Below are positions 877 to 22,400 of a DNA stretch of 24,870 bases, piece after piece. Every line of letters starts with the position of its first letter. The stretch's first letter is position 1. The position numbers and the translations under genes were made by a program. Below the pieces are notes generated by a model, which saw nothing but the letters and a program-made list of their open reading frames with translations, did no database searches and was not told the origin of the DNA. The stretch is from a virus: the IMG/VR virus record IMGVR_UViG_3300017989_000050, positions 1 to 24,870 of that record; one strand, written 5' to 3'.

Positions 877-1108
877 GGCTTGTCTTCTGTCTTGGGTACT
901 CGTTTGGGTTCGATTTTGGGTTCGGGGTTGCCTCTTCTCCCTTCGAAAACGGCGCCGCAGCGGCCGTAGGTCGACATCTCGGACCCCAAAAATGCACCAA
1001 AAAACAAGGCAACGCACCACCTATCATGGTGGACGGTCCATAAAGTTGGGTCGCATGGTGTTTGCGTTGGCCCGGCGACATGCCCGAGGCCCCAAACGCA
1101 GGTTTCAG
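877..1108. promoter_or_regulatory. divergent intergenic control region between the minus-strand operon and the + strand late operon
   Basis: 232 bp between two divergent start codons. It is less GC-rich than the flanks. It has three ~12-bp phased repeats (TCTTGGGTACTCG / TTTGGGTTCGAT / TTTGGGTTCGGG, 889-926), A-tracts (984-1005), and a TATCAT hexamer (1022-1027) inside the partial palindrome CCACC-TATCAT-GGTGG. Confidence 0.5.
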
Positions 1109-1438
1109 ATGTCGTCGATCAAGAAGTTCGAAGAGAAGGCCGCCCGTCAGTCCGCCAAGAAGCGGGCCGAAAAGATGCAACTACAAGAGTTCATCGCCGG
1201 TTTTGCGATGGGAGCGGCCGAGGGGTTCGCCGAAAAACAGGGGATGAGCCTGGTCACCGACGGTATCGGGCCGTTGAAGTTCTCGTACGTCCAAGCGGGC
1301 CTCGGCTACTACCTGGCCACGAAAAAGAGCGGAAAGCTTCGCGAGGCCGGCTCCGCCGCCGCGGTGATCGGGCTCTACAAGATCGGCAAAGACATCGGGA
1401 CGAACTTCGAGCTCGGCGGATTCCTCGGCGGCAGCTAG
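1109..1438 (+). CDS. small basic / Gly-Ala-rich hypothetical protein (109 aa), first gene of the late operon
   Basis: ATG 1109 is in frame with track ORF 875..1438. The 875-1108 part of that ORF lies in the repeat-bearing intergenic region and is Arg/Trp-rich and junk-like. The product has a Lys-rich N-terminal helix (SSIKKFEEKAARQSAKKRAEK), then Gly/Ala-rich hydrophobic segments. Confidence 0.55.
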   Translation: MSSIKKFEEKAARQSAKKRAEKMQLQEFIAGFAMGAAEGFAEKQGMSLVTDGIGPLKFSYVQAGLGYYLATKKSGKLREAGSAAAVIGLYKIGKDIGTNFELGGFLGGS

Positions 1439-1548
1439 CCGCTCGCGCGCACATTCAGAAGTTCCCGGACGTCGCACCGGGGGACCAAGGCGACCCTCCC
1501 GGACCCCACGGCCGGGGCAACAAGCGTGGGTTCACGGAGCACACAGCC

Positions 1549-2211
1549 ATGAGACTCATCCAAGAAGCACTGTCCCCCAACGTCCAAGAGGCGATCCGTT
1601 TGCAGCACCGCGGCGCAGCGCCGCGTGCCCGGTTCGGCATCGGTGGAGGCTGCACGCCTCGCACCGCGACTCCCCCGCCCGGTTCGAGCAACTGCCCGAG
1701 TCCTCCTGTGGTCCCCGGTTGCATCCGCCCCGGACGCACCTGTGATGTGTCGCGTGTCGGCGCAACCCAGGTTGTCACCGGCGGCCAGCCGTTCAGCATC
1801 ATCATCGAGCCCACGCGGGTCACTTGGTTTCAGCCGCTTGGCGTTCGGTGTGTCATCACCGACCTGTCGAACAGCGACCTGAGCCACCGTGTGTTCTTCA
1901 CGGGCGTGACGATCAACGAGACCCCGCAAGAGTCGGTGAACAACATCACCCCGACGGCTCCCGCAGCCGCGGGCGATCGTATCGACGGCTGGTGGTCGGA
2001 CGATTGGATCGACCCCGACGGCTACGCCGTCCCCGTGGGCTGGGGGTGGATCTCTCGAGAGAGCAACACCAACCAGCTCAAGGTCCACGGAATCGCCCTT
2101 GGCATTCCGAACACCACGGACGTCTTGCTCTCGGTGTCGTTGTACGGAAACGGGGCGAACAGCGTACCCGCCGGCATCGCCGATTCAACCCAGCCGCGCT
2201 ACCGCCCCTAG
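1549..2211 (+). CDS. hypothetical beta-rich structural protein (capsid candidate), 220 aa
   Basis: Track ORF with GGAG about 10 nt upstream of the ATG and G/C-dominated third codon positions. The N-terminus is Pro/Cys-containing. The body is beta-type and Trp-rich (VFFTGVTINE, DGWWSDDWIDPDGYAVPVGWGWISRE). Confidence 0.65.
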   Translation: MRLIQEALSPNVQEAIRLQHRGAAPRARFGIGGGCTPRTATPPPGSSNCPSPPVVPGCIRPGRTCDVSRVGATQVVTGGQPFSIIIEPTRVTWFQPLGVRCVITDLSNSDLSHRVFFTGVTINETPQESVNNITPTAPAAAGDRIDGWWSDDWIDPDGYAVPVGWGWISRESNTNQLKVHGIALGIPNTTDVLLSVSLYGNGANSVPAGIADSTQPRYRP

Positions 2212-2234
2212 GAGCCATCAGGGGCCTCGTTACC

Positions 2235-3017
2235 ATGGAGAAGACCGAAGACGTCGGGCGTTCAACGTGCGGGTCATCGCGCGAGCGCATCCACGTCTTC
2301 GGCTCGTACGGGGACCCCGCGGCACCGTTGACGTGGCCCAGCTACGGCAAGACCGTTCCGGCCACGTGGGGTGTACAGCACGACTGCCCGCGGCTCTGGC
2401 TCGTATCAGGTCGCGGCTGGTCGGTGCAACGCTTCGACGCCAACAACGCCTTGGCTCCCCTTGCGGCGTCTCGCGTGGCGGACGGGACGAGTCGGCCCAT
2501 GGCGAAGCTTGCAATCCAAGTCGCAGGGATGGCGGTCGGCAAACAGCCGATCGTCATCGACGCGGACCAGACGATCGAGCTCTACGCCCAGTCTCTGAGC
2601 GTCGCTGCCCTCGTGCCGGTGACCGTCGATGAGGTCCGCTCGACGTCTTCGCTCGAGGTCCCCGCTGGACAGATTGCCGTCGACGACCTCTTGGGTGTCG
2701 CCATCGAAGGCATCCAGGCTCCGATCGGGGCCAAGACCGCGACGCTGACTCAGTACGTTGTGGCGCCGGCAAACACCGTGACATCGGTACCGGTCCCGCG
2801 CGCCGCAAAATCGGTCTTGGTGTCACCTGCCGACCTCGCGGCCCCGGGCGCCTGGACATGGCACGTGGGAGACCCCGCAGTCCTGGCGTCATCGCTCACC
2901 GTTGGGTCGTTTGCCCCCTCCGATGAATCCCTGCGCGTACCCGCCGCAACGCATCTGAGCGTCGCTGCCGACCCCGCAGTCCGAATCTTCGCCATCACCT
3001 GGACCATCGCGCCATGA
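2235..3017 (+). CDS. hypothetical beta-rich structural protein (capsid candidate), 260 aa
   Basis: ATG 2235 lies inside track ORF 1824..3017. The upstream 137 codons overlap the previous gene out of frame and are Arg-rich. The sequence is rich in Val/Ala/Ser/Thr. Its stop overlaps the next start (ATGA at 3014). Confidence 0.6.
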   Translation: MEKTEDVGRSTCGSSRERIHVFGSYGDPAAPLTWPSYGKTVPATWGVQHDCPRLWLVSGRGWSVQRFDANNALAPLAASRVADGTSRPMAKLAIQVAGMAVGKQPIVIDADQTIELYAQSLSVAALVPVTVDEVRSTSSLEVPAGQIAVDDLLGVAIEGIQAPIGAKTATLTQYVVAPANTVTSVPVPRAAKSVLVSPADLAAPGAWTWHVGDPAVLASSLTVGSFAPSDESLRVPAATHLSVAADPAVRIFAITWTIAP

Positions 3018-3544
3018 ACAACCTTCAAGCTCAGCTCAACCCCGGGACCTTCCTCGCCTCGTTGCTCTTCTCTGCCGGCCTGGATGCCGCGCTTTACGGA
3101 GCGGTCGACACCACCGTGATGCGGTTCGTGGGGACCGGCTCCCCGATGGGGACCGGCCTCGCGCAAGTGACCACGGCCGACAACGGAACGATCGTGACGG
3201 TGAGTCGCGCGGGCCTGTACGCCGTGCAGCTGCGCGGCAACAACACGGCCAACGGAACCCTGATCACGGGCATCACGGTCAACTGCGACGCCTTCGCGTT
3301 GACCAACCCTCCGAACTTCGGCACCGCGGGGACGCGAGACGTCGACGTGACCGAGGGGCAAGATGCGGCGGGCAACGGCGCCTCGTGTGCCCTGACCAGC
3401 CTTGTATCGGTGAGCAACGCCGACATTCGGGCAGGCATCGCGGCAGGGGCTGCCGGTGCGCAGCTTCGCGTGCACGGCAGCGGCGGCGGCATCTCGCAAG
3501 GCACCGCGTCCCTTCAGATCCGCCGAGTCCAGTCCACGTTCTAG
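3014..3544 (+). CDS. hypothetical small beta-rich protein, jelly-roll / C1q-TNF-like appearance, 176 aa
   Basis: ATGA overlap with the upstream gene. Composition is rich in Gly/Thr/Asn/Ala, with alternating patterns (GLYAVQLRGNNTANGTLITGITVNCDAF, AQLRVHGSGGGISQGTASLQIRRV). Confidence 0.65.
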   Translation: MNNLQAQLNPGTFLASLLFSAGLDAALYGAVDTTVMRFVGTGSPMGTGLAQVTTADNGTIVTVSRAGLYAVQLRGNNTANGTLITGITVNCDAFALTNPPNFGTAGTRDVDVTEGQDAAGNGASCALTSLVSVSNADIRAGIAAGAAGAQLRVHGSGGGISQGTASLQIRRVQSTF

Positions 3545-3556
3545 GAGGCCCTCTCG

Positions 3557-3991
3557 ATGCTCTATGGAGTCCGCTTGCGCAGCGAAGAAGCGCCCTCTCA
3601 GGCGTTCTTGGAAGCTGCGATCGAAGAGGTGACCCGCGGAAATGTGGGCTACTTCTTCGAGGAATGGCAAGCCGGGAGGGAGCCCCCCTGCTGTCTTGGG
3701 TGCGCGGAGATTCGCCATCTCCCCGACGAGCCCGCCGCGGTGACTGAAATCGTGGGCGCTCGAGACGTCCTCACCAGGGGGGCTGCATCTTGCCAGTCTG
3801 CGGCGGCGTACTACGCAGGCCGTGAGAGGGCTCTGGCGCTCTGGAACGGAGCGGACCCCCAGACGGCAGAGGTCCAGCACCGCGTGGTGCTCGAGCCGCG
3901 GCATCACCCGCACGCCCCGGAGGGGTACTGGCACGCGCTCGTCGTCACGCCCGAAGGCGTGAAGGACGTCACTGAGGAAATGGACACCTGA
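3557..3991 (+). CDS. hypothetical protein, possible transglutaminase-like / papain-like Cys peptidase core, 144 aa
   Basis: AGGAGG 9 nt upstream of the ATG. The order Cys...His...Asp (GAASCQSAAAYYAG ... YWHALVVTPEGVKDVT) resembles the transglutaminase-core arrangement. This is a motif-level guess only. Confidence 0.55.
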   Translation: MLYGVRLRSEEAPSQAFLEAAIEEVTRGNVGYFFEEWQAGREPPCCLGCAEIRHLPDEPAAVTEIVGARDVLTRGAASCQSAAAYYAGRERALALWNGADPQTAEVQHRVVLEPRHHPHAPEGYWHALVVTPEGVKDVTEEMDT

Positions 3992-4662
3992 TGCTCGCCC
4001 TACTCTTCGTGCTTCTCCTCGGTATGTCCGGATCGCGTCGCAGCGGTGCGAAGAAACTCCCCCCTCCCCCGACGCCCGACCCGAAAAAACTCCGGGAGCG
4101 GGTCTGCGCGCTCGTAGCCGCGGGGCACTTCGTCGACGGCATGCTTCCGCTTCTGCTGCGCGAGCTCTACCCCGCGGTGTCGTGGCCGGCGGGAGAGGAG
4201 TGGGACCGCAAGGACGTCGGCGCACTTCCGGTCGATGACCGCGCGAAGTACGACGCGACCAAAAAGGAACTGGATCGTCTCCTCAAACGAAACAAGTTCA
4301 TCGCCGAGTGCACCGATGCGATGACCCCCTACGCGGAAGGGGGCGTGGCGATCCGGGACGGCGACTACGTCGCGACGTGGCGCTACGACCACCGCATCGA
4401 CGACCCTGGCGGCAACCTCCGCTTCGACGATTTGGATGTCGCCCGAACCGCGTTGCTTCGAGCCCTGTACTTCTTCGGAGCCCCGGTCTCCGAGGCGGAC
4501 ACGTTCGTCGAAGCGTCGATGCTGCCGTCCGGCGTGCGCCGCTCGATTTGGGCGATGCCCGGCGGCGGGTACCGAGTCGTAATCGTTCTCGAGGATGACA
4601 GCTCGGCGGGGTACCAAGCGGCGACGCTTGACGATGCGCGCGCGATCGAAGGTGGCGGATGA
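3991..4662 (+). CDS. membrane-anchored hypothetical protein, 223 aa
   Basis: TGATG overlap with the upstream gene. N-terminal TM segment (LALLFVLLLGM) followed by a basic Pro-rich linker (KKLPPPPTPDPKK). Confidence 0.7.
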   Translation: MLALLFVLLLGMSGSRRSGAKKLPPPPTPDPKKLRERVCALVAAGHFVDGMLPLLLRELYPAVSWPAGEEWDRKDVGALPVDDRAKYDATKKELDRLLKRNKFIAECTDAMTPYAEGGVAIRDGDYVATWRYDHRIDDPGGNLRFDDLDVARTALLRALYFFGAPVSEADTFVEASMLPSGVRRSIWAMPGGGYRVVIVLEDDSSAGYQAATLDDARAIEGGG

Positions 4663-5495
4663 AGACCGAGGAAGTCGGCATCGTCGCGCTCTTGCTGCTC
4701 CTGTTCGCGTCGGGGTCAGGGGGAGAACCGCCCAACAAGGGGCCCGACAAAATCAAGCCGCCGCCCCAGCCCGACCCCGGGCCGGAGCCGGTCGAACCGG
4801 TCGAGCCTACGCCGGAAGTCGTCGACCCGCCGATCGACGAAATCACGAACACGGATTGGCCGGTGCCCGGTCACTTCTACGTCGTGCGTCCGGCGCAAGA
4901 CGGGGAAAAAGGCGACACCGGTCTACGCATCGCAAAACGAGCGCTCGCAGACGCGGCCTTCCGAGCTGCCAAAGAGTTCTTGGGCGCATCCGACGATGGC
5001 GCACGCGAGTTCGCCAAAGCCTACTCGAGCGACGGTCCCCGTCAGTACGCCTACCTCGACAAAATCACCTGCGAGTCCTGGAACGACGCGACCGTGACCA
5101 CGTACGGCTACGGCGACAAGGCCCGGGCGGCGCCTCTTAGTGGTCGGGCGATCCGGCTTCTCCCTCAGCACGCAGACAACCTGTCGCGACTTCGCCAGGG
5201 AAAGCGGGCCGTTCGTGAGATGCACTTCGGCAAGAGTAGCGACCGCACCAACGGAGTCCGACGAGGCGGCGGCGGCGATCGCCACGAGACCCTCTATCTC
5301 CCGGGCGTCGACCTGGCGCCGATCATTGAAGGGAAGCTGGCCATCGGCGGCGGAACGTGGCCCGACGGGAGCTCAAAGGCGCACCCCCCCAAGTGGGTGC
5401 TCGATCTCGGCGTGCGCGACCGTTCAAAGTCCGTCACGAGGGGGAACCTGCTTCGCGGTTGCGGAGACAAGGTGAAAGTTGAGGTGGTGCGGTGA
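4659..5495 (+). CDS. membrane-anchored protein with a TonB-like Pro-rich spacer, 278 aa
   Basis: ATGA overlap. N-terminal TM segment (VGIVALLLLLFASG), then PPNKGPDKIKPPPQPDPGPEPVEPVEPTPEVVDPP, then a globular domain. Confidence 0.7.
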   Translation: MKTEEVGIVALLLLLFASGSGGEPPNKGPDKIKPPPQPDPGPEPVEPVEPTPEVVDPPIDEITNTDWPVPGHFYVVRPAQDGEKGDTGLRIAKRALADAAFRAAKEFLGASDDGAREFAKAYSSDGPRQYAYLDKITCESWNDATVTTYGYGDKARAAPLSGRAIRLLPQHADNLSRLRQGKRAVREMHFGKSSDRTNGVRRGGGGDRHETLYLPGVDLAPIIEGKLAIGGGTWPDGSSKAHPPKWVLDLGVRDRSKSVTRGNLLRGCGDKVKVEVVR

Positions 5496-5992
5496 GCTGC
5501 TCAAAAGCATACAGGGACCTGGTGGTCACCCACGGTGGCCTGACGATCGACAATCAGACCGGCTTCGTTCCAAGTCACTTCGACTACGATGAGTGGTTGG
5601 CGCTTGCCCGGCGTCTGGGCCTCCGAGCCTTCACGCACCTCGAGCGGCTCAAGACGACCGCGCCGGAGGCCGGGGAGCTTCGTCAGCAATACGAAGGACT
5701 CGAGGCTCAGTTCCAGTCGCTGCGCGCGCGGTACGAGGCGCTGCCTTCGATCTGGACGTGCTGCTTTATGTACGAGGACACGACGCGCAACATCGGCGAC
5801 GCCGCGTCACTGTGCATCGAGACCGCGTGCTTGATGGAGGAGATCGACAAGGTCATCTCCCGCGCCGGCGCGTCGCCGCCGGTTGAACCTCCCACCCACG
5901 GGAGTGCGACGAAGCCCAAAACCGTCATCGCCGGAGCGGGGACGCTCGCGCTTGCGCTCGGCGCTGCCTATCTCTGGTTCAAGTCGAAGTGA
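5492..5992 (+). CDS. tail-anchored membrane protein, 166 aa
   Basis: GTGA overlap. Helical N-terminal part and a C-terminal TM segment (VIAGAGTLALALGAAYLWF). Confidence 0.65.
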   Translation: MSCSKAYRDLVVTHGGLTIDNQTGFVPSHFDYDEWLALARRLGLRAFTHLERLKTTAPEAGELRQQYEGLEAQFQSLRARYEALPSIWTCCFMYEDTTRNIGDAASLCIETACLMEEIDKVISRAGASPPVEPPTHGSATKPKTVIAGAGTLALALGAAYLWFKSK

Positions 5993-6477
5993 TGAGCGGA
6001 CTCTGGCTACTGCTGCTGCTCGTGCTCGCTTCCCGCGGGCGTGGATCGAGCGTGCCCGCCGACGGCAAAAAGAAGGACGGGGGGCGCTTCTGGGACTCTT
6101 CCGGTGGCTCAACGTTCGGAGGCTTTGACTTCGCCGGGAACGGCATCGAAGTCGACGAGGAGTGCGGAGCCGTTGCCGAAGGACGTTGGTTCTTCCCCTT
6201 CGACTGGGCGACGGTGAACACGCGAGCCGAAGAGGCCGACACGGTCGGAGGAACACTCGCGATCGGCCGAGACAATACCGTCTTGGGCTTCATCGACTAC
6301 CTCACCGACACCGAAGGGGTGACAGAGCCGGAGGTCATCGCGGCAAGGATCCTCGAAGAGGTCGCCCCCACGTGCGCCACGGCACCAGTGGACAGCTGGC
6401 GGCCAGCAATGCGGGCTTGGTACGGATCTCTCACCGAACGGGTCACGGCCTACGTGGGGCAGGACTTGATCGGATGA
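5992..6477 (+). CDS. secreted / membrane-anchored hypothetical protein, 161 aa
   Basis: ATG 5992 overlaps the upstream TGA (GTG 5989 is also possible). N-terminal hydrophobic segment (GLWLLLLLVLAS). Confidence 0.65.
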   Translation: MSGLWLLLLLVLASRGRGSSVPADGKKKDGGRFWDSSGGSTFGGFDFAGNGIEVDEECGAVAEGRWFFPFDWATVNTRAEEADTVGGTLAIGRDNTVLGFIDYLTDTEGVTEPEVIAARILEEVAPTCATAPVDSWRPAMRAWYGSLTERVTAYVGQDLIG

Positions 6478-7208
6478 AAGCTCGCGCTGGAATCGGAATC
6501 GCGCTGCTCGCCGCGCTGACGCTCTTGGCGAACTCGCCGAGCGACCCCGGCACGCCGTCGACGCGGCCGCCCGGCGGCGCAAAGCTGGTCCGCGAGCTCG
6601 GCCAGCGCGGAGGGATGACGGCGGGGCAGATCGACTTCCTCACGTTCGTTGCATACGGAGAGTCGGGGTTGAAGCCCGACGTGGGGCTTGGGGACGCGGC
6701 ACTGTTCCCGCCGGGGACGCGGCCGAACACGAAGGCCAGTCAGTCGTTGCAGGTCGCAGAGGCTTACGCTGCCCGCAAAGCCTACGACCGAAACCGCGGG
6801 TGGCTGGGCAGCTGCCCGCATCCCGAGTCCGCGTATGCGTTTGGCAGTGGCGGCTTGTTCGCATTTCTCCCCGTCTACGCGCTCGCACAGTTCAAGGGTA
6901 CGGCGCTCGAGTGCGCGTCTCCGTACTCCGTCTTCGATCCCGCTTTCGCGATGGCGGCGGCGTACGGGTTCGCGCGCGGACTGACGATGCGCGCGGGCTT
7001 CCTCGGCACGTGGGAGTCGCTGCGCTCCGGCTGGGGACTCCCCTCGGCGATGGATGACCTTGAGCGCATCGCGAAGAAGTCCGACAAATGGAAGCGGCAG
7101 CTCAACGCGGTGGGGTTGCCCGCCTCTCGGCTCAAGGCTGAGGCACCCGCGTTCCCAAGGCGCGATCTGGTCGAGCTGTACCAGGGCATGGGTGGGGGGA
7201 ACGCATGA
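6474..7208 (+). CDS. putative lytic transglycosylase (SLT-like) with signal peptide, 244 aa
   Basis: ATGA overlap at 6474 inside track ORF 6162..7208. Signal-like N-terminus (GIGIALLAALTLLA). Glu-Ser catalytic-type motif FVAYGESGLKPDV followed by GSGGLFAFL and AAAYGFARG, as in goose-type/SLT domains. Confidence 0.5.
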   Translation: MKARAGIGIALLAALTLLANSPSDPGTPSTRPPGGAKLVRELGQRGGMTAGQIDFLTFVAYGESGLKPDVGLGDAALFPPGTRPNTKASQSLQVAEAYAARKAYDRNRGWLGSCPHPESAYAFGSGGLFAFLPVYALAQFKGTALECASPYSVFDPAFAMAAAYGFARGLTMRAGFLGTWESLRSGWGLPSAMDDLERIAKKSDKWKRQLNAVGLPASRLKAEAPAFPRRDLVELYQGMGGGNA

Positions 7209-7318
7209 CATTCGACGAAGACGCGAAGCCCAGCAACTACGTGGCGCGAGGGTTCTACTTCGCGATCGGTACGTGGATTTTCTGGTCGCTGGCCAACGCC
7301 CTCACGGAGGACGACTGA
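7205..7318 (+). CDS. 37-aa single-TM miniprotein (below the ORF-track size cut-off)
   Basis: The ATG at 7205 overlaps the upstream TGA (ATGA), and its own TGA (7316-7318) overlaps the next ATG (TGATG). Product MTFDEDAKPSNYVARGFYFAIGTWIFWSLANALTEDD has one hydrophobic helix. It exactly fills the gap between two coupled genes. Confidence 0.55.
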   Translation: MTFDEDAKPSNYVARGFYFAIGTWIFWSLANALTEDD

Positions 7319-8241
7319 TGCCTGCTTCGAAGTCCGGCAGCCGCGCCACATACCCGAGCGGAAAAGCTGCGGCGCGAGAGTTCTACGGGGAGAATGCCGC
7401 GTTCTTCGACAACGTTCGGGACCCGGTCGACGGTGTGCGCGACTTCCTGGATGGGCTCAACGACAGGCGTGGGCGTCGCGTGTCAGAGACAACGGCCGGG
7501 CGAAAAATCCTAGCCGAACGCTCTGGGCGGAAGATGATCGAAGGCGCTTTGGCGCTTGTGTTCGCGCAGCCGCGGCGAAAACGCTGGGACGCTGTGGATT
7601 GGCACGAGGTCCGCCGACTTGAGGAATCGCTCTCACCGTTCTACGAACCGTACGGCCAAAGGTCAGCCCAATCGCCAACCCTCGTGTGGAAGCCGTTGGC
7701 CGCAGTTACGGACGAGGATGTCGGGTCTCTCGCTCCCGAGGTCGCAAACCTCTACTACGCGCAGAAGCACAAAAAGAATCTGCGGGAGCTGGTCTCGCGT
7801 CTGTCCTCCACGTTTGAGGCGCGCAAGGGATGCCTGACCCCGCCCCAGCGAAAACACGTGAAGGCCCGAATCCGCGAGTGGACGCGTTGGGCAAAGGACC
7901 CCGCCCGGGTTCCGGCCTACGCATGCGATCCGGACCCAAAGTCGGGCGGGATGCTTTGCGACTACCCCAGAATCGAAGGCGAGCTGGCGCGACTGCGCGA
8001 TGCGTGCCGCAGTAAGTACGATCCCGAGTGGATCGAGCTCGAGCGCGGTCGGCCTGGTTTTCAAGAGCCGCTACGTGCCGACGAACAGCCTTTGCTGCCG
8101 GTCGAGGCGTTCGAGGACGAAGCGCCGAAGGAGCCATGCACAGTGAAAGAGGCGGCAGGGGTGATGGGGCGCCACGCCGCCAGGAGACGCCAACGCAAGC
8201 CAAGACGCCCGCAGGTGATCATGGGGAGGCTAGTCACGTGA
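7318..8241 (+). CDS. hypothetical basic protein, 307 aa
   Basis: ATG 7318 inside track ORF 7054..8241 (TGATG coupling). Charged and helical, with a strongly basic C-terminus ([16 protein letters not shown]). Confidence 0.65.
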
Positions 8242-8516
8242 CCAAGAAACGCAGCAAGAAGACGACAAAACGACGCGCGAAGAAGACGGCCAAGAGGAAG
8301 ACGGCCAAGAGGAAGACGGCCAAGAAGAAGACGGCCAAGAAGAAGACGGCCAAGAGAAAAACGGCCAAGAGGAAGACGGCCAAGAAGAAGACGGCCAAGA
8401 AGAAGACGGCCAAGAAGAAGACGGCCAAGAAGAAGACGGCCAAGAAGAAGACGGCCAAGAAGAAGACGGCCAAGAAACGAAAGCCGTTCGTCCACTGTGG
8501 GAGAGTCGTCGGCTGA
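8238..8516 (+). CDS. histone-H1-like, Lys-rich (K/R)KTAK pentapeptide-repeat protein (putative DNA-condensing protein), 92 aa
   Basis: GTG 8238 overlaps the upstream TGA (GTGA), with GGAGG 8 nt upstream. Product: [18 protein letters not shown], then repeated (K/R)KTAK units, ending [14 protein letters not shown]. Confidence 0.75.
8280..8474 (+). repeat. 13 tandem copies of the 15-bp unit AAGAAGACGGCCAAG (coding, in frame)
   Basis: ACGGCC recurs every 15 nt from 8286 to 8466. The last six units (8385-8474) are identical. Variant units carry AGG or AGAAAA in place of AAG codons. Confidence 0.95.
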
Positions 8517-9097
8517 TGCTTGATGGGGTCATCATTGGGATTTTCGCGGCGTTGCTCGCGGTCGGCTCGATCGGGCGGACCTCGGCGACTGCGCGTGCCC
8601 AGGTGCGCCCCTCGTGCAGCGTCTCGATTCTTCTCCTCGAAGCCGACCGCATCGCGATGTCGAAGGCGATCGACACGGCGAGCGGCGGCCTGGGCTTCTC
8701 ACACGCGGCCTGGGACGCATGCGAATCCGTCGACGGGGTCGACGTGGGCATCGACTGTCGCCCGGGAAAGGGCGTGCATCGTCGGCCGCTCGCCGACATC
8801 GTCGGGGCCCGTCGGCACGTTCGCGTCTTCCTCCCGCTGCTGGAGGGGCGTGAGGCGTATGGGTGCGCCCGGGCTCGGGTCGGCGAGGCGTACGACGGTC
8901 TCGCGTTGTTCCTGACCTCCGGTGGTGGCCGTCGCCGCGGCACGATCTGCTCCGAGCTCGTCTACGAGTGCTTGCCGGCTCGTCTGCAAGCTCGCATCCC
9001 CCTCCCCTCCGATCGACCGGTCTCCCCGAACGACATCGCCCGCGCGTTCGGCATCGCCAACCCGTCCTCACCGGACGTTCATCTCACCGAGGTCTGA
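8516..9097 (+). CDS. permuted papain-like amidase, YiiX/YaeF (NlpC/P60 superfamily) type, N-terminal TM, 193 aa
   Basis: TGATG overlap. TM segment [15 protein letters not shown]. The motif series matches E. coli YiiX in order: [19 protein letters not shown] (SKAI..A...SH), [26 protein letters not shown] (G.pYD) and the catalytic-type [10 protein letters not shown] (yCSELV). Confidence 0.65.
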
Positions 9098-10005
9098 TGC
9101 TCTGGCTACTCGCACTTGCAACCGTGGCGCTTGTCGCCTCCGCCGAAAACAAGAATCCTCCGCCCGCGCCGGTCGGAAACTCCGGACATGTGCCGCTCAA
9201 CAACGTCGACACGTTCGAAGTGCTGACCTACACGGTGCTCGTCGGCCAAGATGAAGAGGGCAACTGGGATTGGCGCGCGTGGCTGACCACGGTGTTTGAG
9301 TCGCGCGACGAGATCGACGGCCTCGAAGAGGGCCAGGGCTTCGACTGGCCAACGCGCGAGGAAGCAGAGGCCGAGGCGCGCGCGTGGGCGGAGTCGCAGT
9401 TGCGCGGGCCGTTGGGGACGTCGGTCCCCGTGGAACCCGCGATCACACGTCGGGGCGTCCGCGTGTCGGGAGACGGCAGCGCAGTGTCGGTGACCGACAT
9501 CGACGCGTGGATCGCCCACGCCGCGCCCATCATCAAGGGGCACGACGTCGAGTCTCCGCAGGCCGACGACATCATGCGGCTGACGCTTCACGGGGCGTTC
9601 CCGGAACGCGGCTTCGACTCGGGCGCGAGCCCCTCGATTCGCGGTCAGTCGTGGGAGAAGACGCGGGAGCGCGTTCAAGCGGTCATCGACAAAATCCTCG
9701 CCGGCGAGCTGCTCAGCGTGCAGCCGCTAGAAGAGGTTGTCGCGGCCCGCGTCCTCAACATGTCGGCGCCGACGGTCGAAGGCGCGAGCGCCTTCCTGCA
9801 CACGGGGGCGAACAACGGCAACGAGCACGCGATCGTCGTGCGGCCGATGCCGTCCGGAGACGCCGCGTGGTGGGTCTGGCAGGGGCCGCGTCGCGACTGG
9901 GACGACGCCGCGCAAGTCGGCACGGCTCGAGACACGGAGGAAGCCAAGGGCGCCGCGAAGGCGTGGGCTGACGCCTACTACAACGTCGGAGTGAGCACAT
10001 CGTGA
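9097..10005 (+). CDS. secreted / membrane-anchored hypothetical protein with internally repeated W-x-W...EEA...AWA motif, 302 aa
   Basis: ATG 9097 overlaps the upstream TGA, inside track ORF 8863..10005. N-terminal hydrophobic segment LWLLALATVALVASA followed by a Pro-rich stretch. Confidence 0.65.
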   Translation: MLWLLALATVALVASAENKNPPPAPVGNSGHVPLNNVDTFEVLTYTVLVGQDEEGNWDWRAWLTTVFESRDEIDGLEEGQGFDWPTREEAEAEARAWAESQLRGPLGTSVPVEPAITRRGVRVSGDGSAVSVTDIDAWIAHAAPIIKGHDVESPQADDIMRLTLHGAFPERGFDSGASPSIRGQSWEKTRERVQAVIDKILAGELLSVQPLEEVVAARVLNMSAPTVEGASAFLHTGANNGNEHAIVVRPMPSGDAAWWVWQGPRRDWDDAAQVGTARDTEEAKGAAKAWADAYYNVGVSTS

Positions 10006-10352
10006 GACCCATGGGGAACATCAACGGCGAGAATGGACAGACCGGAGCGCTGCGAGAGCGCAGTGTCACGGCGAGCACCACGCTGGTCGAGAGCGACGGT
10101 GGGCGCGTGCTCGAAGCGGACCCCGCCGCCGCCGGCGGAGCGCTGACCATCACTCTTCCGGCCGACAGCTGTGGACCCGGCTACTTCACCGAGGTGATGC
10201 AGGTGTCCGCAGGGACGGTGGTGTTCGCCCCCGCAGCGGGGACGTCGATCGACTCGGCAGCGGGCGCCACCCAGCTCACCCAGCAATGGACCTCGGCACG
10301 CATGCGTCGCCGAGAGACCGGCACATGGGCTCTGGAGGGGGCGCTCTCGTGA
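10002..10352 (+). CDS. small hypothetical protein, paralogue A of the 11966..12322 product, 116 aa
   Basis: GTGA overlap (ATG 10011 is an alternative start). Shares ...DGG.vL...GPG(Y/F)...(V/I)MQ..AGTV...TQLT.Q...R...TW.L.G.L with the 118-aa protein. Confidence 0.65.
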   Translation: MRPMGNINGENGQTGALRERSVTASTTLVESDGGRVLEADPAAAGGALTITLPADSCGPGYFTEVMQVSAGTVVFAPAAGTSIDSAAGATQLTQQWTSARMRRRETGTWALEGALS

Positions 10353-11956
10353 GCCGGCTCTGGCGATGGATGGGCGGTCGAGGGACGGCCTCCGCCGTGC
10401 TCTCGCTGCAAGTCACCTTTCAGGGCGGCTCGGCGATGTTCGAGACGGAGCGGGCAGCCCGTGAGGGCTCCGCCGGCGGCTCGCTGCAAGGGCTCACCAT
10501 CGCCGTGCCCGGCAACGCACCGCTGGGGAATCACTACTTCTACTTCCGCCAGACCGACCAATACGGCCGCGTCGTCGGGTTCTCGACTGCGGCTCTGTAC
10601 GCTGCGCTGGCCGGATACACCCCCCACGCGGTCGACATGCCCGCGGGGGTGAACGACATGGACGCCGTCGCCGACATGTTCCGATCGGTTGCGGCGACCG
10701 TGTTTGCGGCCGCCGTCCGCGTCGACAACGTCGTGACGATCGCCGACCCGAACATCGACGCCGCGGGGGCCTTCCTGCCCTCGAGTGGCGGCGGCGGTGG
10801 CGGAATGCTCGGCACGCAGGATGTCTCGTCGAGCAACCTTTTCACGCAGCCGGACTCGAACGTCTGTTCTCTCGTGACGCCCGCGTTCGCGGATGACACG
10901 TACCTCTTCGCGGTTCAGGTCGACATCGGCTCCGCGTACGTGGACCCGTTGCGGTTCGGTCTCTACGTCGGCGGAGGGGTCAACGCGCCCGGCGGGACGC
11001 CGCTGTTGTGGGACTCCGGGGTGTGGCCGGCGGCCGTGGTGACTGGCCAGTACCTGACGCTCTTCCCTTCCTCGCTCGTTCAGGTGCCCGCAAGCACGCG
11101 GTTGCAGGCAATCATCGTGGGCGCCGCCGGGACCACAACCGAGGTCGGCTACCAGGGCGCCAGCGGTGCGGGAGACTGGGAGACGAGCCCGGGCGGCATC
11201 TTCAACGTCAACGCCGCGATTCCGCCGAACCCGGCCGCAGCACTGCCGGGGACCTTCCCCGCCGGCGGCAGCCTGACGTCGGCAACGTTCACCTTCAACG
11301 TGCGACTGATCTACAGCACGCTGCCGTTGCGAGGAGACGGGGCGCTACAGACCCAATACGGCGTGCACGTGGCCGCGAGTGACCTCGCGTTCACCACGGC
11401 ATTCGCTGCAAACGTTCTCCAGGGCGGCGCCCTGCCCCCGCAGCTCGAGGGGCTCGGGCTCGACTTTGTCGAGATCGCGGCAAACGACGATGCATCGTTC
11501 CGTCTCGCGGCCTATCAGGGCGGAGCACTGCTCAACCCGAACACGGCTGACCTGGTCTACGACGTCGGCCAAGGTCCCGCGGGGCCTGGTCTGCCGATCG
11601 GCTGGTACCGGCGCAACGTGCCGGCGGCTGTGCACGCCCCCATCGATCGAACGCGACTCATCTGGAGCGCGGCTCGGGACAACGGCGGAGCAACGGTGCG
11701 CTTCTCCAACGTCCCCGGTCCCGGGCCCGCGGGTCCCGACACCAACCCCATGGACTACCCCGACAACACGCCGGGCAACGAACCCGAGTACGAGTCCTTC
11801 TCGTCGAACCCGGGCTTCGCAATCGACCCCACCACGCCGTTTGAGGCGAGCTTCCCCGCCAACACCACCAACGCCCCGATCGACACGCTGCCCGGAAACG
11901 TGCAGGGGTCGAAGCTGGGATTCCGCATCCGCCCCGTCGAACTCGCTGCCATCTGA
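10349..11956 (+). CDS. large beta-rich Gly/Pro/Ala-rich protein (spike / host-recognition or large capsid candidate), about 535 aa
   Basis: Track ORF 10286..11956. I chose GTG 10349, which overlaps the upstream TGA; ATG 10370 or 10436 are also possible. No TM segment. Has a poly-Gly linker (SSGGGGGGM) and a C-terminal Pro/Asn-rich region. Confidence 0.7.
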   Translation: MSRLWRWMGGRGTASAVLSLQVTFQGGSAMFETERAAREGSAGGSLQGLTIAVPGNAPLGNHYFYFRQTDQYGRVVGFSTAALYAALAGYTPHAVDMPAGVNDMDAVADMFRSVAATVFAAAVRVDNVVTIADPNIDAAGAFLPSSGGGGGGMLGTQDVSSSNLFTQPDSNVCSLVTPAFADDTYLFAVQVDIGSAYVDPLRFGLYVGGGVNAPGGTPLLWDSGVWPAAVVTGQYLTLFPSSLVQVPASTRLQAIIVGAAGTTTEVGYQGASGAGDWETSPGGIFNVNAAIPPNPAAALPGTFPAGGSLTSATFTFNVRLIYSTLPLRGDGALQTQYGVHVAASDLAFTTAFAANVLQGGALPPQLEGLGLDFVEIAANDDASFRLAAYQGGALLNPNTADLVYDVGQGPAGPGLPIGWYRRNVPAAVHAPIDRTRLIWSAARDNGGATVRFSNVPGPGPAGPDTNPMDYPDNTPGNEPEYESFSSNPGFAIDPTTPFEASFPANTTNAPIDTLPGNVQGSKLGFRIRPVELAAI

Positions 11957-11965
11957 GAGCAAGCC

Positions 11966-12322
11966 ATGAATCACGCATCCCCCGGAAACCTCAATGGCCG
12001 CAAGGCTGACTACACCGGCACCAACGCCGCGCGCACCATCACCGCCGACTACCAGGTCCGGGAGACCGACGGCGGCGTGCTGCTGGTGGTGGACAGCGCA
12101 GGGCCCGTGTTCATCTCGCTCGAGGGCACCGTCGGTCCCGGCTTCTCCGTCGACATCATGCAAGAGGGAGCGGGCACGGTCTCGATCCTCGGGCTGCCCG
12201 GACAGACGGTCCTGTCTCGCGACGACCGCACCCAGCTCACCGGGCAGTACGCCCGCGCCCGCGCCCGCTGCATCCGCGCCGATACGTGGGTGCTCGACGG
12301 TGACCTGACCACGGGCGGCTAG
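11966..12322 (+). CDS. small hypothetical protein, paralogue B of the 10002..10352 product, 118 aa
   Basis: Track ORF. Motif sharing as listed for paralogue A. Confidence 0.65.
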   Translation: MNHASPGNLNGRKADYTGTNAARTITADYQVRETDGGVLLVVDSAGPVFISLEGTVGPGFSVDIMQEGAGTVSILGLPGQTVLSRDDRTQLTGQYARARARCIRADTWVLDGDLTTGG

Positions 12323-12371
12323 ACCTCCGCGCCCCTTTCAACGCAACGCCAACCCGAACAACGAAACTCCC

Positions 12372-12773
12372 ATGACCAGACTCCGAACTCATTGCCTGCT
12401 TCTCGCCTCCGCCCTCGCTGTTCCTCTCACGCTCGGCGTGGGGGCATGCGAGCTGTCCGGGTGTGCCGCCGGCTCGAACGTTGGGCCGACGCTTCAGAGC
12501 GTCGTTGCGCGCGTTGACGTCCCGCGGCTTCTCGAGTGTGCCCAGGCCGGCGACGCGAAGGCGGCCGCAAAGTGCCTCGGCGCCCGGGCGCTGACCGAGG
12601 GCTTGCGCCTGGCGATGGACGAAGCGACGCGGCTCGCCGAGGACGCTCAGCTTGCATCGGCCAAGGGAGCCGGCGCGGACGACATGAGCGAGCCTGAACG
12701 AGCCGCGCTCGCAATGCAGCTCGACCACTCGCTAGACCGCCTGGCCGACGAGATCGCAGCCACGCACGAGTAG
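12372..12773 (+). CDS. putative lipoprotein (possible outer-membrane spanin-like component), 133 aa
   Basis: Signal peptide plus lipobox-like LTLGVGA|C. The mature part is helical and Ala-rich. Lies immediately upstream of the TM coiled-coil and amidase genes. Confidence 0.55.
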   Translation: MTRLRTHCLLLASALAVPLTLGVGACELSGCAAGSNVGPTLQSVVARVDVPRLLECAQAGDAKAAAKCLGARALTEGLRLAMDEATRLAEDAQLASAKGAGADDMSEPERAALAMQLDHSLDRLADEIAATHE

Positions 12774-12785
12774 AGAGAACCGGCC

Positions 12786-13148
12786 ATGGTGGAGTCGGTA
12801 TCGGCAGACGCTCTCGATGTCGGCTCACTCGTCGGCAACGGAGGGCTCAGTGCCGTGCTTGCAGTCGCGGCGTGGCGACTGAGCACGGCCGCAAAACAGT
12901 TCGTCGACACCTTCAAGCAGGCGGTCGCCCAGTGGCGCGAGGATGCGAAGGCTCAGCGCGCGCACTTCGAGTCCGAAGAGAACTTGCTGCGGGAGCTTCG
13001 AGACGAGCGGAAGACGTGGGACGCGGCCAAGGAAGCCGAGGCGAACTGGCGGCGCTCGATCATGCAGGTGAACACCCGCCTCGACAGCATCGACGACCGC
13101 ATCGACCGCGCAATCGCTCGCGCTGGCGAAGATCGGGGGCACGGCTGA
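12786..13148 (+). CDS. membrane-anchored coiled-coil protein (i-spanin-like or holin-like), 120 aa
   Basis: N-terminal hydrophobic segment (GGLSAVLAVAAWRL), then a charged coiled-coil (QWREDAKAQRAHFESEENLLRELRDERKTW). Its stop overlaps the amidase start (TGATG). Confidence 0.55.
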   Translation: MVESVSADALDVGSLVGNGGLSAVLAVAAWRLSTAAKQFVDTFKQAVAQWREDAKAQRAHFESEENLLRELRDERKTWDAAKEAEANWRRSIMQVNTRLDSIDDRIDRAIARAGEDRGHG

Positions 13149-13981
13149 TGCTCGGCGCGTCTTTGCTCGCCGCCCGACTCGCAGCGCTGCTCCACCCCAC
13201 GGACGTCTCTCGAATGTGGGAGCCCGGAGAGGCGGAGTCCCCCGACGACCTCGCAGCATGTGAGGCGGAGCGGTGCGCGACCGAAGAGGTCATCGCCGAC
13301 TTCGAGGTGGTCGATCTCGAGGGCCGCGCAGCGAAGGCGCGGTACCGGGGCAAGAACGGCAAGCCGGGCAAGCTGAAGCGGACTCGGTACCCACGCGTGT
13401 CGCTCGCGAAGCGCCGCGTGGTCGTGTCTCTTCACCAGCCGGGGGTCGAGCGGACCGAGGCGCGTTGGCGGCAGACGGCGGACCGGGTGACGTCGCATCG
13501 CTTCATCGGGCCGACCGGCGTTCGCTACCGCCAACACCCGCTCGAAACCCGTCTCGTTGCAACGAACCGCCTCGACCGGGCACCGTGGCATGCCATCGCG
13601 ATCGAGGTCGCGGGCAACTTCGAACGGCTCGACGGTACCGGAACGTGGTGGAACCCGGACCGATTCGGGCGAGGTCGGGCTACCGACGCGCAGATCGAAG
13701 CCACGCGGGTTGAGATTGCTTCGCTCTGCGAGGAAGTCTCCGAGCTCGGCGGCGAAGTCGAGGCCATCGTTCCGCACATCATCGCGGGGCGAGACCGCAA
13801 CGGCCGTCCGAACCGGCAAGCCTGCTGTGGCTCGCGCGTGTGGTCGGAGGCTGGCGAGTGGGCCGGGGCTGTCCTCGGGCTCAGTGTGCCCGCGCCGGGC
13901 TTTGCTCTCGGCGGCCTGCCGGTCCCGGACGCGTGGCACGGGCCGTACTGGGGGCGCTGCGATCGATTCCTGACGGGGTAG
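13148..13981 (+). CDS. N-acetylmuramoyl-L-alanine amidase (Amidase_2 / PGRP / T7-lysozyme type) endolysin, 277 aa
   Basis: ATG 13148 inside track ORF 12872..13981. Motifs appear in the expected order: VVVSLHQPG (first Zn His), SHRFIGPTGVRYRQ, WHAIAIEVAGNF, TDAQIEATRVEIASL, then PHIIAGRD...QACCG (His/Cys ligands). Hydrophobic N-terminus (LGASLLAARLAALL). Confidence 0.7.
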   Translation: MLGASLLAARLAALLHPTDVSRMWEPGEAESPDDLAACEAERCATEEVIADFEVVDLEGRAAKARYRGKNGKPGKLKRTRYPRVSLAKRRVVVSLHQPGVERTEARWRQTADRVTSHRFIGPTGVRYRQHPLETRLVATNRLDRAPWHAIAIEVAGNFERLDGTGTWWNPDRFGRGRATDAQIEATRVEIASLCEEVSELGGEVEAIVPHIIAGRDRNGRPNRQACCGSRVWSEAGEWAGAVLGLSVPAPGFALGGLPVPDAWHGPYWGRCDRFLTG

Positions 13982-14407
13982 CAGCCCAAATCGGCGCGGG
14001 GGTTGACTTCGCGGATCGAGCGGGCGACGATCTTGGGGAGGCAAGAGAAAACCCCCGGCCGGCGATGGTGCCGACAGGGGGTCCGAGATGCCTCCCTCAC
14101 ACGAAAGGAGAAGACTTCACAACCCGATCATGGAAAGTCTCCGGGGTCAACCCACTTTTTCGCGATCGGGCGATGTTTTGAAGAGGCGACGTAGTAGACA
14201 GTAGCGAAATTATCGGCGTATGGACCTATGGCGCGGGCGCGATGGAACGCCTGGAGCGATACCCGAAAGGGACGCGTACAGGGGCCGGGTTGAAGTCCCG
14301 GACCGCAGCCACTACCTGCGCAGCCTCGGAGGCCCCTGGCCTCCGCCCGATAACGACGACTCTGTATATTATGTCAAATCTTTGAGGCGTGAAGTCGGCC
14401 ACGGCCG
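13982..14407. promoter_or_regulatory. non-coding control region between the late and early operons (AT-richer core 14180-14400)
   Basis: No convincing ORF. TTGACT-17 nt-GACGAT at 14003-14031 (+). GC hairpin CGGAGGCC-cctg-GGCCTCCG at 14327-14346. TATATTAT at 14365-14372. A consensus TTGACA on the complementary strand at 14372-14377. Confidence 0.45.
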
Positions 14408-14953
14408 ATGCAAGCCCTGAATCCCCGAGCCCTCGAACTCGAATTCTACCGCCGCCGAGCATGCCCACCACGGCAGCTCCCGCTCGCGCGGCTCCGACTG
14501 TCCCAACCCAACGGGAGCACATCTCGGCGAGCGCGGTCGTCGAGCACCAACAACGCAGACCCCCGGGCCCGCGCAGCCCGGGGTGTCACCTATCACCCCG
14601 CCACCGAGCAGCACGCGGACCGCTCGGAGTGTCCGGCATCCCGGACGACGGCAAAAACTGCCGGAAAGTTTCCTGAAACGGACTGCGGACGACGGCCGAC
14701 CGATCGTCCGTGTTCTGACATCAGGAAGAAAGCCAGGCCGGCGACTTCCAATCTCACCAAGTCCCTGACTCGGGCTCGGTGGGGCCTTCGCCGGCAAACG
14801 ACACGAATCGCTGAGCTCCGAGCCGAGCTCGAGCGCCGAGAGGCACGAGCCGCGCAGTACCGCGGTCAGGTCGCGACCTTCAGCGAACAACTCGCCGAGG
14901 TCGACCCCGACGCCTTGGACAGCACCCACGACGTCAGCGGGGGTGCCCGATGA
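14408..14953 (+). CDS. hypothetical protein; only the C-terminal ~65 codons look protein-like and the start is uncertain
   Basis: Track ORF. The C-terminus RIAELRAELERREARAAQYRGQVATFSEQLAEVDPDAL is a plausible coiled-coil and ends in the conserved GGAR-ATGA junction. The 5' two-thirds is Arg/Pro-rich and contains hairpins and direct repeats. There is no internal ATG. Confidence 0.3.
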   Translation: MQALNPRALELEFYRRRACPPRQLPLARLRLSQPNGSTSRRARSSSTNNADPRARAARGVTYHPATEQHADRSECPASRTTAKTAGKFPETDCGRRPTDRPCSDIRKKARPATSNLTKSLTRARWGLRRQTTRIAELRAELERREARAAQYRGQVATFSEQLAEVDPDALDSTHDVSGGAR

Positions 14954-15249
14954 AGCCGTCGGATGCAACGAGCGAGGCCCCGGCTAAGTCGGAGCTCTGC
15001 GTAGCGTCGGAAGTCGCCCAGCACCTCGCCGGCGAGGTTTGGCGCTCGCTGGACGCCGAGGCCCAGCGCGAGCTGCTGGCGTTGTCTCAGTACGCAGTGC
15101 CAGTACGAGTGTCGCTGCGCGCCGCGCTTTCGGAGGCCGGGCTCGTTCAGCTGAATGGGCATCACCTGCTGCCGTGGGGAGCAATGGTTGCTGAAGTTGG
15201 AGGTGCTCGACGCTACGACGAGCGCATCGCCGACGGAGGTGCCCGATGA
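14950..15249 (+). CDS. small early protein, paralogue family member 1 (99 aa)
   Basis: ATGA overlap preceded by GGGGGTGCCCG. Shares the family pattern with 15246..15515 and 15742..16032. Confidence 0.65.
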   Translation: MKPSDATSEAPAKSELCVASEVAQHLAGEVWRSLDAEAQRELLALSQYAVPVRVSLRAALSEAGLVQLNGHHLLPWGAMVAEVGGARRYDERIADGGAR

Positions 15250-15515
15250 AGGGCGAGTACCCCTCCCCGGCCACGTTTCAGATCGCGGCTCGTGAGGCGC
15301 ACGGCCTCGCGGCGGAGACCTACGACGCGCTTGGGGAAGAGGCCACGCGCGTCCTCCAGTACGCGCTCGCATCGACAGCGGTGCCAGTCGGCTGCGATGC
15401 CGTTGTCGAACAGAGGCTTCGCGATGCTGGATGCGTGAAGGGGGAGCAACCCTTCTCGTCGAGCTCGGTCACGTTCTGGGGGCAGTTCGTGCTCTCGACC
15501 GGAGGTGCCCGATGA
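15246..15515 (+). CDS. small early protein, paralogue family member 2 (89 aa)
   Basis: GGAGGTGCCCGATGA junction at 15235-15249; family pattern shared. Confidence 0.65.
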   Translation: MKGEYPSPATFQIAAREAHGLAAETYDALGEEATRVLQYALASTAVPVGCDAVVEQRLRDAGCVKGEQPFSSSSVTFWGQFVLSTGGAR

Positions 15516-15745
15516 AGGCGTCGTTCGAAGCCGCGAAGCGGGCGTACGAGGCCGCGTCCGCTCGCTACGAGGCGCTCTCCAAGGTGCTCGATGCGGAGGT
15601 GATCCTCTTGGGGAACAGCCACGGCACCCTCGTCGACCCGAGCGACCTCACCGCTCGCTCCCAGCAGTTGGTCGAGGCCGCGCATGAGGTGGTCGCCGCC
15701 GCCGGCGAAATGCAGCGCCACTCGGCAGAGGACGGTGCCGAATGA
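15512..15745 (+). CDS. small helical hypothetical protein (77 aa)
   Basis: GGAGGTGCCCGATGA junction at 15501-15515. ATG 15512 inside track ORF 15431..15745. Confidence 0.6.
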   Translation: MKASFEAAKRAYEAASARYEALSKVLDAEVILLGNSHGTLVDPSDLTARSQQLVEAAHEVVAAAGEMQRHSAEDGAE

Positions 15746-21809: not shown

Positions 21810-21840
21810 CGAGAGAACCCACGAGAGAGACGAGAAGACA

Positions 21841-22326: not shown

Positions 22327-22348
22327 TCGGCCCGCTGGCCACGATGCA

Positions 22349-22386: not shown

Positions 22387-22400
22387 GCATGCTGACAGGC

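Follow-up and report, generated by a model that had tools for sequence, protein, structure and literature searches.

A lysine-rich pentapeptide-repeat protein of a phage-like element: its apparent origin from a neighbouring gene and its possible role

DNA-compacting polycationic repeat proteins are known from chromosomes, with histone H1, Hc2 and AlgP-like proteins as examples, and from eukaryotic viruses; the isolate-phage, PHROGs and IMG/VR resources that we searched yielded none. The subject of this analysis is a gene of comparable composition in the virus record IMGVR_UViG_3300017989_000050, positions 1 to 24,870 of which form the whole stretch of DNA analysed (the window). Located at 8238-8516 within a phage-like element, this repeat gene encodes a 92-amino-acid (aa) protein composed mostly of tandem (K/R)KTAK pentapeptides and, judged from sequence comparison, looks like a split-off, slippage-expanded copy of the basic 3′ end and tip of the gene directly upstream.

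The C-terminal tail of H1 is a disordered, Lys/Ala/Thr-rich polycation that neutralises DNA charge, and the repeat protein fits it in composition only: the winged-helix globular domain of H1 is absent here, and the repeat protein is almost without proline, strictly periodic and not homologous. Consecutive Lys/Arg-rich pentamers with Ala and Thr, as here, also make up Hc2 (hctB) and the Hc2-like proteins of Bordetella and Burkholderia (BpH1); the Lys-rich pentamers of Hc2 bind DNA, and in-frame gain or loss of units makes strains differ in protein length (PMC2848022). The repeat protein shares with Hc2 basic pentamers whose copy number varies in frame, which is not proof of common descent, and Hc2 models were the only ones to give it any score, with PF07382 reaching 14.8 bits against a cut-off of 40, and the NF038052/NF038053 models 12.4 against 135 and 11.3 against 80. 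Hc2 differs in carrying two basic residues per pentamer rather than three, in its length of 165-237 aa, and in its 36-aa super-repeat and chromosomal location, whereas the repeat protein has no super-repeat, is encoded by a phage-like element and shares its tip with a neighbour. AlgP is likewise a bacterial Lys/Ala-rich tandem-repeat ‘H1-like’ protein, although its KPAA repeats are not found in the window protein and no similarity was detected; it is a cellular protein tied to polyphosphate granule spacing and association (PMC9239181), indicating that such tails need not target DNA.

Among viral proteins, J of phiX174 coats DNA and enters the procapsid with it during motor-less packaging coupled to rolling-circle synthesis (PMC13386984). 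The likeness lies in a small basic body that ends in a short non-basic C-terminus, and in a gene located with those for morphogenesis in a replicon that has a rolling-circle replication (RCR) initiator and no packaging ATPase; there is, however, no sequence similarity, the repeat protein is 2-4 times longer and built of repeats, its gene is dispensable in related lineages, and the replicon measures 24.7 kb rather than 4-6 kb. Pfam returned no Linker_histone or Microvir_J match to the 92-aa protein at E≤0.01 or E≤10, comparison with PDB sequences gave nothing, and none of 17 candidates from a word-indexed search scored. On these comparisons the repeat protein is placed outside the H1, Hc2 and microvirus J families, the likeness being one of composition and architecture only; the description ‘histone-H1-like’ in the original prediction, which was made from the sequence alone, holds for a composition of the H1-tail/Hc2 type and fails as family membership, there being no globular domain, an Hc2 score below cut-off and no KPAA.

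The repeat gene and its array

Translation of 8238-8516 gives a protein of 42 Lys, 9 Arg, 16 Thr and 14 Ala (46% Lys, 17% Thr, 15% Ala), with a net charge of ~+50, an isoelectric point of ~12, a mass of 10.5 kDa and a single proline. Low complexity extends over residues 3 to 82, and the layout comprises an N-terminal segment, 13 × (K/R)KTAK, KRK and a 10-residue non-basic tip. The features of the locus are:

8225..8229, + strand: Shine-Dalgarno-like GGAGG, 8 nt before the GTG start (read from the sequence)
8238..8516, + strand: gene of the polycationic protein (92 aa), running from a GTG start to a TGA stop (translation; synteny in contigs L015, L014 and L020)
8279..8476, + strand: 15-bp tandem array, consensus GAAGAAGACGGCCAA (Tandem Repeats Finder, repeat finding, pattern search against shuffles, unit listing)
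8484..8513, + strand: codons of the non-basic C-terminal tip of the 92-aa protein, related to the tip of the upstream protein (motif scan)

Translation and Tandem Repeats Finder bear out the original prediction of a 92-aa K/R/A/T-rich product with 13 such pentapeptides from a 15-bp array, with the exception of the tail, given there as KKRKPF, where the actual non-repeat tail has 13 residues. A single array was reported (8279-8476, period 15, 13.2 copies, 95% matches, score 354). Allowing up to two mismatches, the unit GAAGAAGACGGCCAA occurs 12 times, every one within the array, whereas shuffled sequences predict 0.08 occurrences; three mismatches set the 13th unit, at 8354, apart from it. The copy number of 13 comes from one assembly, the window’s array being crossed by no independent contig. 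Variation between units is confined to K/R exchanges (AAG/AGG/AGA) or synonymous changes (AAG/AAA), and the last six are identical to each other, as had been noted, although at 8384-8473 rather than at 8385-8474, which is one base out of register.

The GTG start (8238-8240) overlaps the TGA stop (8239-8241) of the upstream gene, and the TGA stop of the repeat gene (8514-8516) overlaps the ATG (8516-8518) of the downstream gene; the GTGA and TGATG overlaps and the gene’s own GGAGG, all remarked on previously, are thus present in the sequence. No terminator-like site lies between 7277 and 8883. The mechanical open reading frame (ORF) in this frame begins at GTG 8028, within the upstream gene, and was rejected as the true gene, since GTGACCAAGAAACGC of the window corresponds to ATGACCACGAAACGC in the relative L014, supporting a start at 8238; the start position is conserved (window GTGACC..., L014 ATGACC...). 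No stop codon interrupts any of the six frames within the array, and the KKTAK frame and the codon-aligned antisense (LAVFF)n frame each have a third-position G+C content (GC3) of 0.89; strand and frame are therefore settled by synteny, the conserved tip and the relatives, which together indicate that ORF 8238-8516 is a real protein-coding gene.

The same element, at 99.7-100% identity, is found in at least eight samples. Every contig of it that reaches the array ends inside it, namely scaffold_3255 (at both ends), L002, L003, L005/L008 and L006; contigs of related lineages that end in arrays of their own are L014, L016 and L020; and arrays are crossed only by the window and by SPJJ01033187.1 (L015). 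Seven of the nine independent contigs reaching such arrays end within them, and because contigs mostly stop there the full repeat protein is not on record, an exact look-up having returned none. The array breaks most short-read assemblies of the element family, which helps explain the scarcity of complete genomes.

Two ERZ27256770 contigs match the window at 100% up to 8359 and from 8379. In the ERZ23498687 strain the units run KK-RK-RK-KK-KK-KK-RK'-RK..., compared with KK-RK-RK-KK-KK-RK'-RK... in the window: three KK units rather than two precede the AGAAAA-marked unit, and the flanks are 99.75% identical. Repeat-number polymorphism between strains, as a clean in-frame gain of one unit, is supported by this comparison, in keeping with the original prediction. 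Arbitrary collapse or expansion between assemblies had been named as the mark of an artefact; most short-read assemblies do break at the repeat, and the sole interpretable difference is in frame and of one unit, fitting real slippage polymorphism rather than such an artefact. A longer perfect run in L003 is not claimed as a copy-number difference, since one AGG>AAG change explains it equally well.

The upstream protein, its tail and the relatives of the repeat gene

The neighbouring features on which the proposed origin depends, together with the downstream gene, are:

7318..8241, + strand: upstream 307-aa gene, helical core (residues ~10-250) and disordered basic tail (public-assembly gene calls, homologues, AlphaFold2)
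8158..8238, + strand: codons of the upstream protein’s 27-residue tail, presumed source of the duplicated module (alignment, motif scan)
8516..9097, + strand: downstream gene encoding 193 aa, with a hydrophobic segment at the N-terminus of its product (start ATG overlapping the repeat-gene stop)

Upstream proteins end in (K/R)R..PRRP(Q/R)V(I/V)MGR(L/V)V, and the repeat protein of L015 has the tip KRPTVIMGRLVSV; the two endings in that contig are RPRVVMGRLV* and RPTVIMGRLVSV*. In six-frame translation of the window, and likewise of L015, GR[VLI]V at most three residues from a stop occurs only at the ends of the upstream and repeat genes. The 10 aligned tip codons of the two L015 genes contain five synonymous and two non-synonymous differing sites, and the predominance of synonymous differences indicates selection on the tip peptide. 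By the proposed route, a duplication would have copied the basic stretch and the V(I/V)MGR(L/V)V tip, both encoded at the 3′ end of the upstream gene, the duplicate gaining its own start and Shine-Dalgarno sequence and then lengthening via replication slippage. The upstream core is not present in the 92-aa protein, which has only the basic tail and tip in common with the upstream family. The original prediction is confirmed in its observation and partly supported in its interpretation, being right as analogy and on polymorphism and missing the link with the neighbouring gene. Homology of the VMGRLV tip to the T.RG(I/L)V(G/Y) endings of other family members is not claimed, given the GR versus RG order.

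Relatives were collected via homologues of the upstream 307-aa protein and their contigs compared, with the following outcome at the repeat-gene position:

L015 (SPJJ01033187.1), upstream identity 67-71% group: complete ORF ending KRTKRPTVIMGRLVSV, 79 aa, charge +43
L014, upstream identity 67-71% group: K/R/T-rich ORF starts, contig ends within it
L020, upstream identity 67-71% group: MAKKKTTKKKTTKRRTKKKVTKRRA..., located after an inserted 142-aa gene
L021-23, upstream identity 60%: repeat gene absent, upstream and downstream genes abut
L017-19, upstream identity 48%: repeat gene absent, upstream and downstream genes abut

Lys-rich proteins at the same position in related elements, whose search the original prediction had proposed, were thus found in L015, L014 and L020, where a K/R/T-rich ORF lies at or beside that position, and are absent from L017-19 and L021-23, whose upstream tails are slightly longer and more Lys-rich. 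The repeat gene is restricted to a single sub-clade of these phage-like elements, a family with sizes of 18-25 kb, and the Myxococcota chromosomal loci contain no K/R-rich ORF. The array period is 15 in the window and 24/27 (super-period 51) in L015, and the N-terminal segment of the window protein resembles the L015 repeat unit. Composition and position are conserved while the DNA repeat is not, a pattern that favours selection acting on the protein and expansions that occurred independently, and that speaks against an iteron or an antisense gene.

In L020 a 142-aa beta-rich gene (10912-11340) stands between the upstream gene and the Lys-rich gene; the two need therefore neither adjoin nor be translationally coupled. 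Fusion of the upstream and repeat ORFs by a -1 frameshift was rejected, with L015 having an 11-nt spacer with its own Shine-Dalgarno sequence and L020 a whole gene between them.

AlphaFold2 modelling of the upstream protein gave a predicted local distance difference test score (pLDDT) of 74, with a confident helical core at ~10-250 and a tail below 50. An exhaustive profile search with this core matched 114 clusters, many of 500-2,400 aa; the tallies below refer to the 109 with E below 1e-10. Strongly Lys-rich stretches, in which K and R together make up 50% or more of a 30-aa window, occur in 12 of them (KKKATKKKATKKKAT and KKKAKAAPKKKAAKKK are examples). The distant 811-aa member P0075 carries 9 × RKTAK near its C-terminus, in the same polypeptide as the core, encoded at L039 2657-2792 by a 15-bp array (AAG CGG AAG ACC GCG, 9.1 copies); the pentapeptide RKTAK is identical to that of the window, with different Thr and Ala codons. 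An IPF ending is found in 21 clusters, in 20 of which it is preceded by acidic residues, a combination that is the hallmark of the bacterial SSB C-terminal tip; other endings are GPYWY..YIGK (DUF6788-like) or basic RRLxRRLMR-type motifs.

Fusion partners of the core include DUF3560 (six members), PcfJ and a weak, sub-threshold LPD29 match, and relatives of the upstream protein are found at chromosomal loci as well as within giant multidomain proteins. These giants resemble polyvalent-type, DNA-escorting proteins, which are thought to be packaged or transferred along with DNA (PMC5512222); the 92-aa protein itself has no such domain, however, and the core is not among the named polyvalent domains, so that the link is one of association. 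A tblastn search with the upstream protein against GenBank phages and PLSDB plasmids gave no match. Across the family the core is an uncharacterised mobile-element domain to which a polycation and short C-terminal docking peptides have repeatedly been joined; the range of endings suggests one unnamed core domain whose docking peptides are interchangeable, and in the window’s clade the polycation appears to have become a gene separate from that core.

Proposed role and alternative explanations

The repeat protein is proposed to act as a detachable nucleic-acid-binding arm of the upstream protein, duplicated from its tail and binding the element’s DNA, a reading that we hold to be about equally likely to prove right or wrong. 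As a disordered polycation it would bind this DNA non-specifically through phosphate contacts, neutralising and compacting it, while the short tip would dock it to the partner of the upstream tip, such as a protein of the capsid or of a membrane, or the receptor of the upstream protein. The DNA-polycation complex would thereby enter the particle and/or be escorted with the genome, and the number of repeats would set the charge per molecule in a quickly changeable way. By arithmetic, at +50 each, ~990 copies would neutralise 24.7 kb of double-stranded DNA (dsDNA) fully, and ~60 copies ~12% of a single strand. Of these steps, the least secure are the location in the virion and the choice of docking partner. 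The Lys-rich repeats and SSB-like tips of the family point to a genome-associated accessory of the neighbour, not to a free-standing histone.

The repeat gene lies in an uninterrupted + strand block from ~1109 to 13981 (public-assembly gene calls), its members mostly overlapping by 1-4 nt. Many encode small proteins with hydrophobic N- or C-terminal segments, three encode beta-rich proteins of 220, 260 and 176 aa, and the last gene gives a weak Amidase_2 match, its homologue in L021 carrying PF01510. The product of 11966-12322 (118 aa) matches ‘virion structural / minor tail’ PHROGs over its C-terminal ~100 aa (best 1.3e-9). A phage-like element with a late-gene block and without a recognisable packaging ATPase is a reasonable description. 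The placement ‘inside the structural operon’ in the original prediction stands as regards a co-directional, overlapping block with a virion-structural-type domain and an amidase; the evidence for its structural nature is thin.

That thinness weighs against the detachable-arm proposal, as do several further points. Polycations also bind RNA, polyphosphate and anionic lipids; the repeat gene is absent from two related lineages and so is not essential to the family; the two tips have diverged in the window (FVHCGRVVG versus VIMGRLVT), weakening the case for a shared partner in its lineage; and the upstream family may act in replication or establishment, not in virions. Foldseek comparison of the upstream AlphaFold2 model with PDB and BFVD yielded no match at E≤0.001, so that the fold gives no function; the model of the 260-aa capsid candidate, from a 4-sequence alignment, had a pLDDT of 40.6 and was unusable; and profiles of the 220-, 260- and 176-aa families gave only noise against PDB sequences.

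An unlikely competitor, which sharpens the idea of a virion-associated condensing protein in the original prediction, is that of a strict packaging protein like microvirus J, in which rolling-circle synthesis would thread the possibly single-stranded genome of this motor-less element into procapsids, the polycation entering with the DNA, neutralising it and tethering it to the inner capsid via a hydrophobic tip. The claim that the replicon lacks a packaging ATPase withstood inspection: neither the replicon nor its relatives show a detectable P-loop ATPase; the real reading frames of the window and of L014, L015, L017, L020 and L021 are devoid of Walker A motifs, and Pfam, PHROGs and NCBIfam scans of nearly all ORFs identified no family of ATPases, terminases, portals or known capsids, their sole hits being MT-A70, SSB, weak Rep_trans, ASCH, Amidase_2 and the C-terminal virion-structural domain of the 118-aa protein. 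The element has an SSB and an RCR-type Rep (Rep_trans below cut-off in the window, Rep_1 in L014 and L020), and a basic body with a short non-basic C-terminal tip parallels J (PMC13386984). However, the gene is missing from two related lineages that share the gene set, so that it cannot be a general packaging device of the family, although their Lys-rich upstream tails are slightly longer; there is no homology to J; absence of Walker A does not prove absence of a divergent motor; and RCR Reps serve dsDNA phages and plasmids too. It is a decidedly doubtful extension that these are non-tailed, motor-less Myxococcota viruses using polycation-assisted condensation coupled to rolling-circle synthesis, the microvirus J strategy at about five-fold larger scale and possibly with ~25 kb of single-stranded DNA, in which the repeat protein would be a charge-neutralising packaging factor whose unit number tracks genome length; the charge is +50 for 24.7 kb in the window and +43 for the ~21-kb contig L015, a comparison of two in which the completeness of L015 is unchecked.

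Somewhat less probable than a J-like packaging protein is an intracellular, non-virion role, in compaction or silencing of the host nucleoid, in coating DNA against nucleases, or in replication together with the upstream protein and SSB. The acidic-IPF tips of the upstream family, its chromosomal Myxococcota loci and its DUF3560/PcfJ giants suggest DNA metabolism or establishment, the element has an SSB of its own ending in DDDIPF, and the cellular analogues Hc2, BpH1 and AlgP are nucleoid or granule proteins (PMC2848022, PMC9239181). The gene nevertheless lies midway along the late-type block, where it overlaps the genes on either side, rather than in the replication module at 14-22 kb, and it has no independent promoter-like site. 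Improbable is a polyanion target other than DNA (anionic membrane lipids, polyphosphate or RNA), the protein serving to bridge membrane and DNA, to assist entry or lysis, or to bind polyphosphate: the hydrophobic segments of many small neighbours, the association of H1-like AlgP with polyphosphate granules (PMC9239181) and, according to a report on the plasmid-partitioning protein TubY, a C-terminal region able to bind membranes and DNA (PMC7762940) are compatible with it, yet nothing specific supports it, and the SSB-like tips and DNA-linked fusions favour nucleic acid.

Very improbable, too, is a neutral slippage product, tolerated as 15 is a multiple of three, or an assembly artefact. The contig ends within arrays (7/9), the lack of an independent contig spanning that of the window and the lack of a full-length protein on record might suggest as much; against it stand the presence of the gene in four lineages with differing repeat units and a conserved start and tip, the restriction of unit variants to K/R exchanges or synonymous changes, the perfect agreement of the ERZ27256770 contigs on both sides of the array, and the same pentapeptide in a distant family member via different codons. 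Function of the DNA itself or of the opposite strand can be given hardly any credence: 13 direct repeats do look like an iteron array, but an iteron or origin array, like a pac or recombination site, was rejected with the unit found nowhere else in the replicon, the array ~11 kb from rep and relatives retaining the protein composition and tip and not the DNA unit, and the antisense (LAVFF)n ORF at 8234-8473 (- strand), open for 79 codons with a GC3 of 0.89, was judged a by-product of the repeat, its peptide not being conserved (L015 reads ATLRRLL-type in antisense, by inspection), its start having to be TTG and its direction opposing the uninterrupted + strand block.

The replicon, its probable host and wider meaning

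Bases 1-123 equal 24748-24870, an exact 123-bp terminal direct repeat, and the window is therefore a complete circular genome of 24,747 bp, with a G+C content of ~66%. A 342-aa minus-strand gene spans the circle junction (24595..876). The + strand block is followed by small genes including MT-A70, a weak ASCH, a 648-aa sub-threshold Rep_trans protein and SSB, with two genes on the - strand. The replication initiator is swapped among close relatives, being the 648-aa Rep_trans protein (19863-21809) in the window and Rep_1 (PF01446) in L014 and L020. A 122-nt direct repeat (94%) at 22329-22450 and 22775-22896 marks two paralogous small genes, 22389-22775 and 22835-23122, with a common signal-peptide or lipoprotein-like N-terminus (MRRLLFALLLVAPACD), and the region 22207-24870 is hypervariable, with 92-96% identity and indels between strains 99.7% identical elsewhere. 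Within the + strand block, two paralogous ~117-aa proteins, at 10002-10352 and 11966-12322, lie either side of a 535-aa gene and are candidate host-recognition modules.

Megablast of the whole window against GenBank phages found nothing, IMG/VR scans with the 193-aa protein and the upstream-family alignment found nothing similar, and an Rfam scan and tRNA search were empty; the elements look like an unclassified group of 18-25 kb. Distant homologues of several genes occur in Myxococcota genomes, three loci being in Paraliomyxa miuraensis SMH-27-4 and others in metagenome-assembled genomes (MAGs) of Myxococcota or ‘Deltaproteobacteria’. The contigs L024-L031 encode homologues of the 307-aa protein (35-42%), often ~1 kb upstream of a homologue of a 489-aa minus-strand protein, and L027, a 21-kb MAG contig, also encodes an amidase homologue and homologues of the 220-, 260-, 144-, 278- and 161-aa proteins. 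Together with the Myxococcota homologues, the bacterial-type SSB tip makes a myxobacterial host likely, and Myxococcota is the likely host phylum on these sequence similarities.

The repeat protein has a traceable origin, in which the tail of a neighbour would have been duplicated and then grown by slippage, with polymorphism seen between strains. It links a polycation to a widespread, unnamed mobile-element domain, offering a first testable functional handle on a dark family. If the protein were present in particles, it would bear on the motor-less condensation of 25 kb of DNA; arguably, the ATPase-less, myxobacteria-linked, unclassified element is a larger lead than the repeat protein itself.

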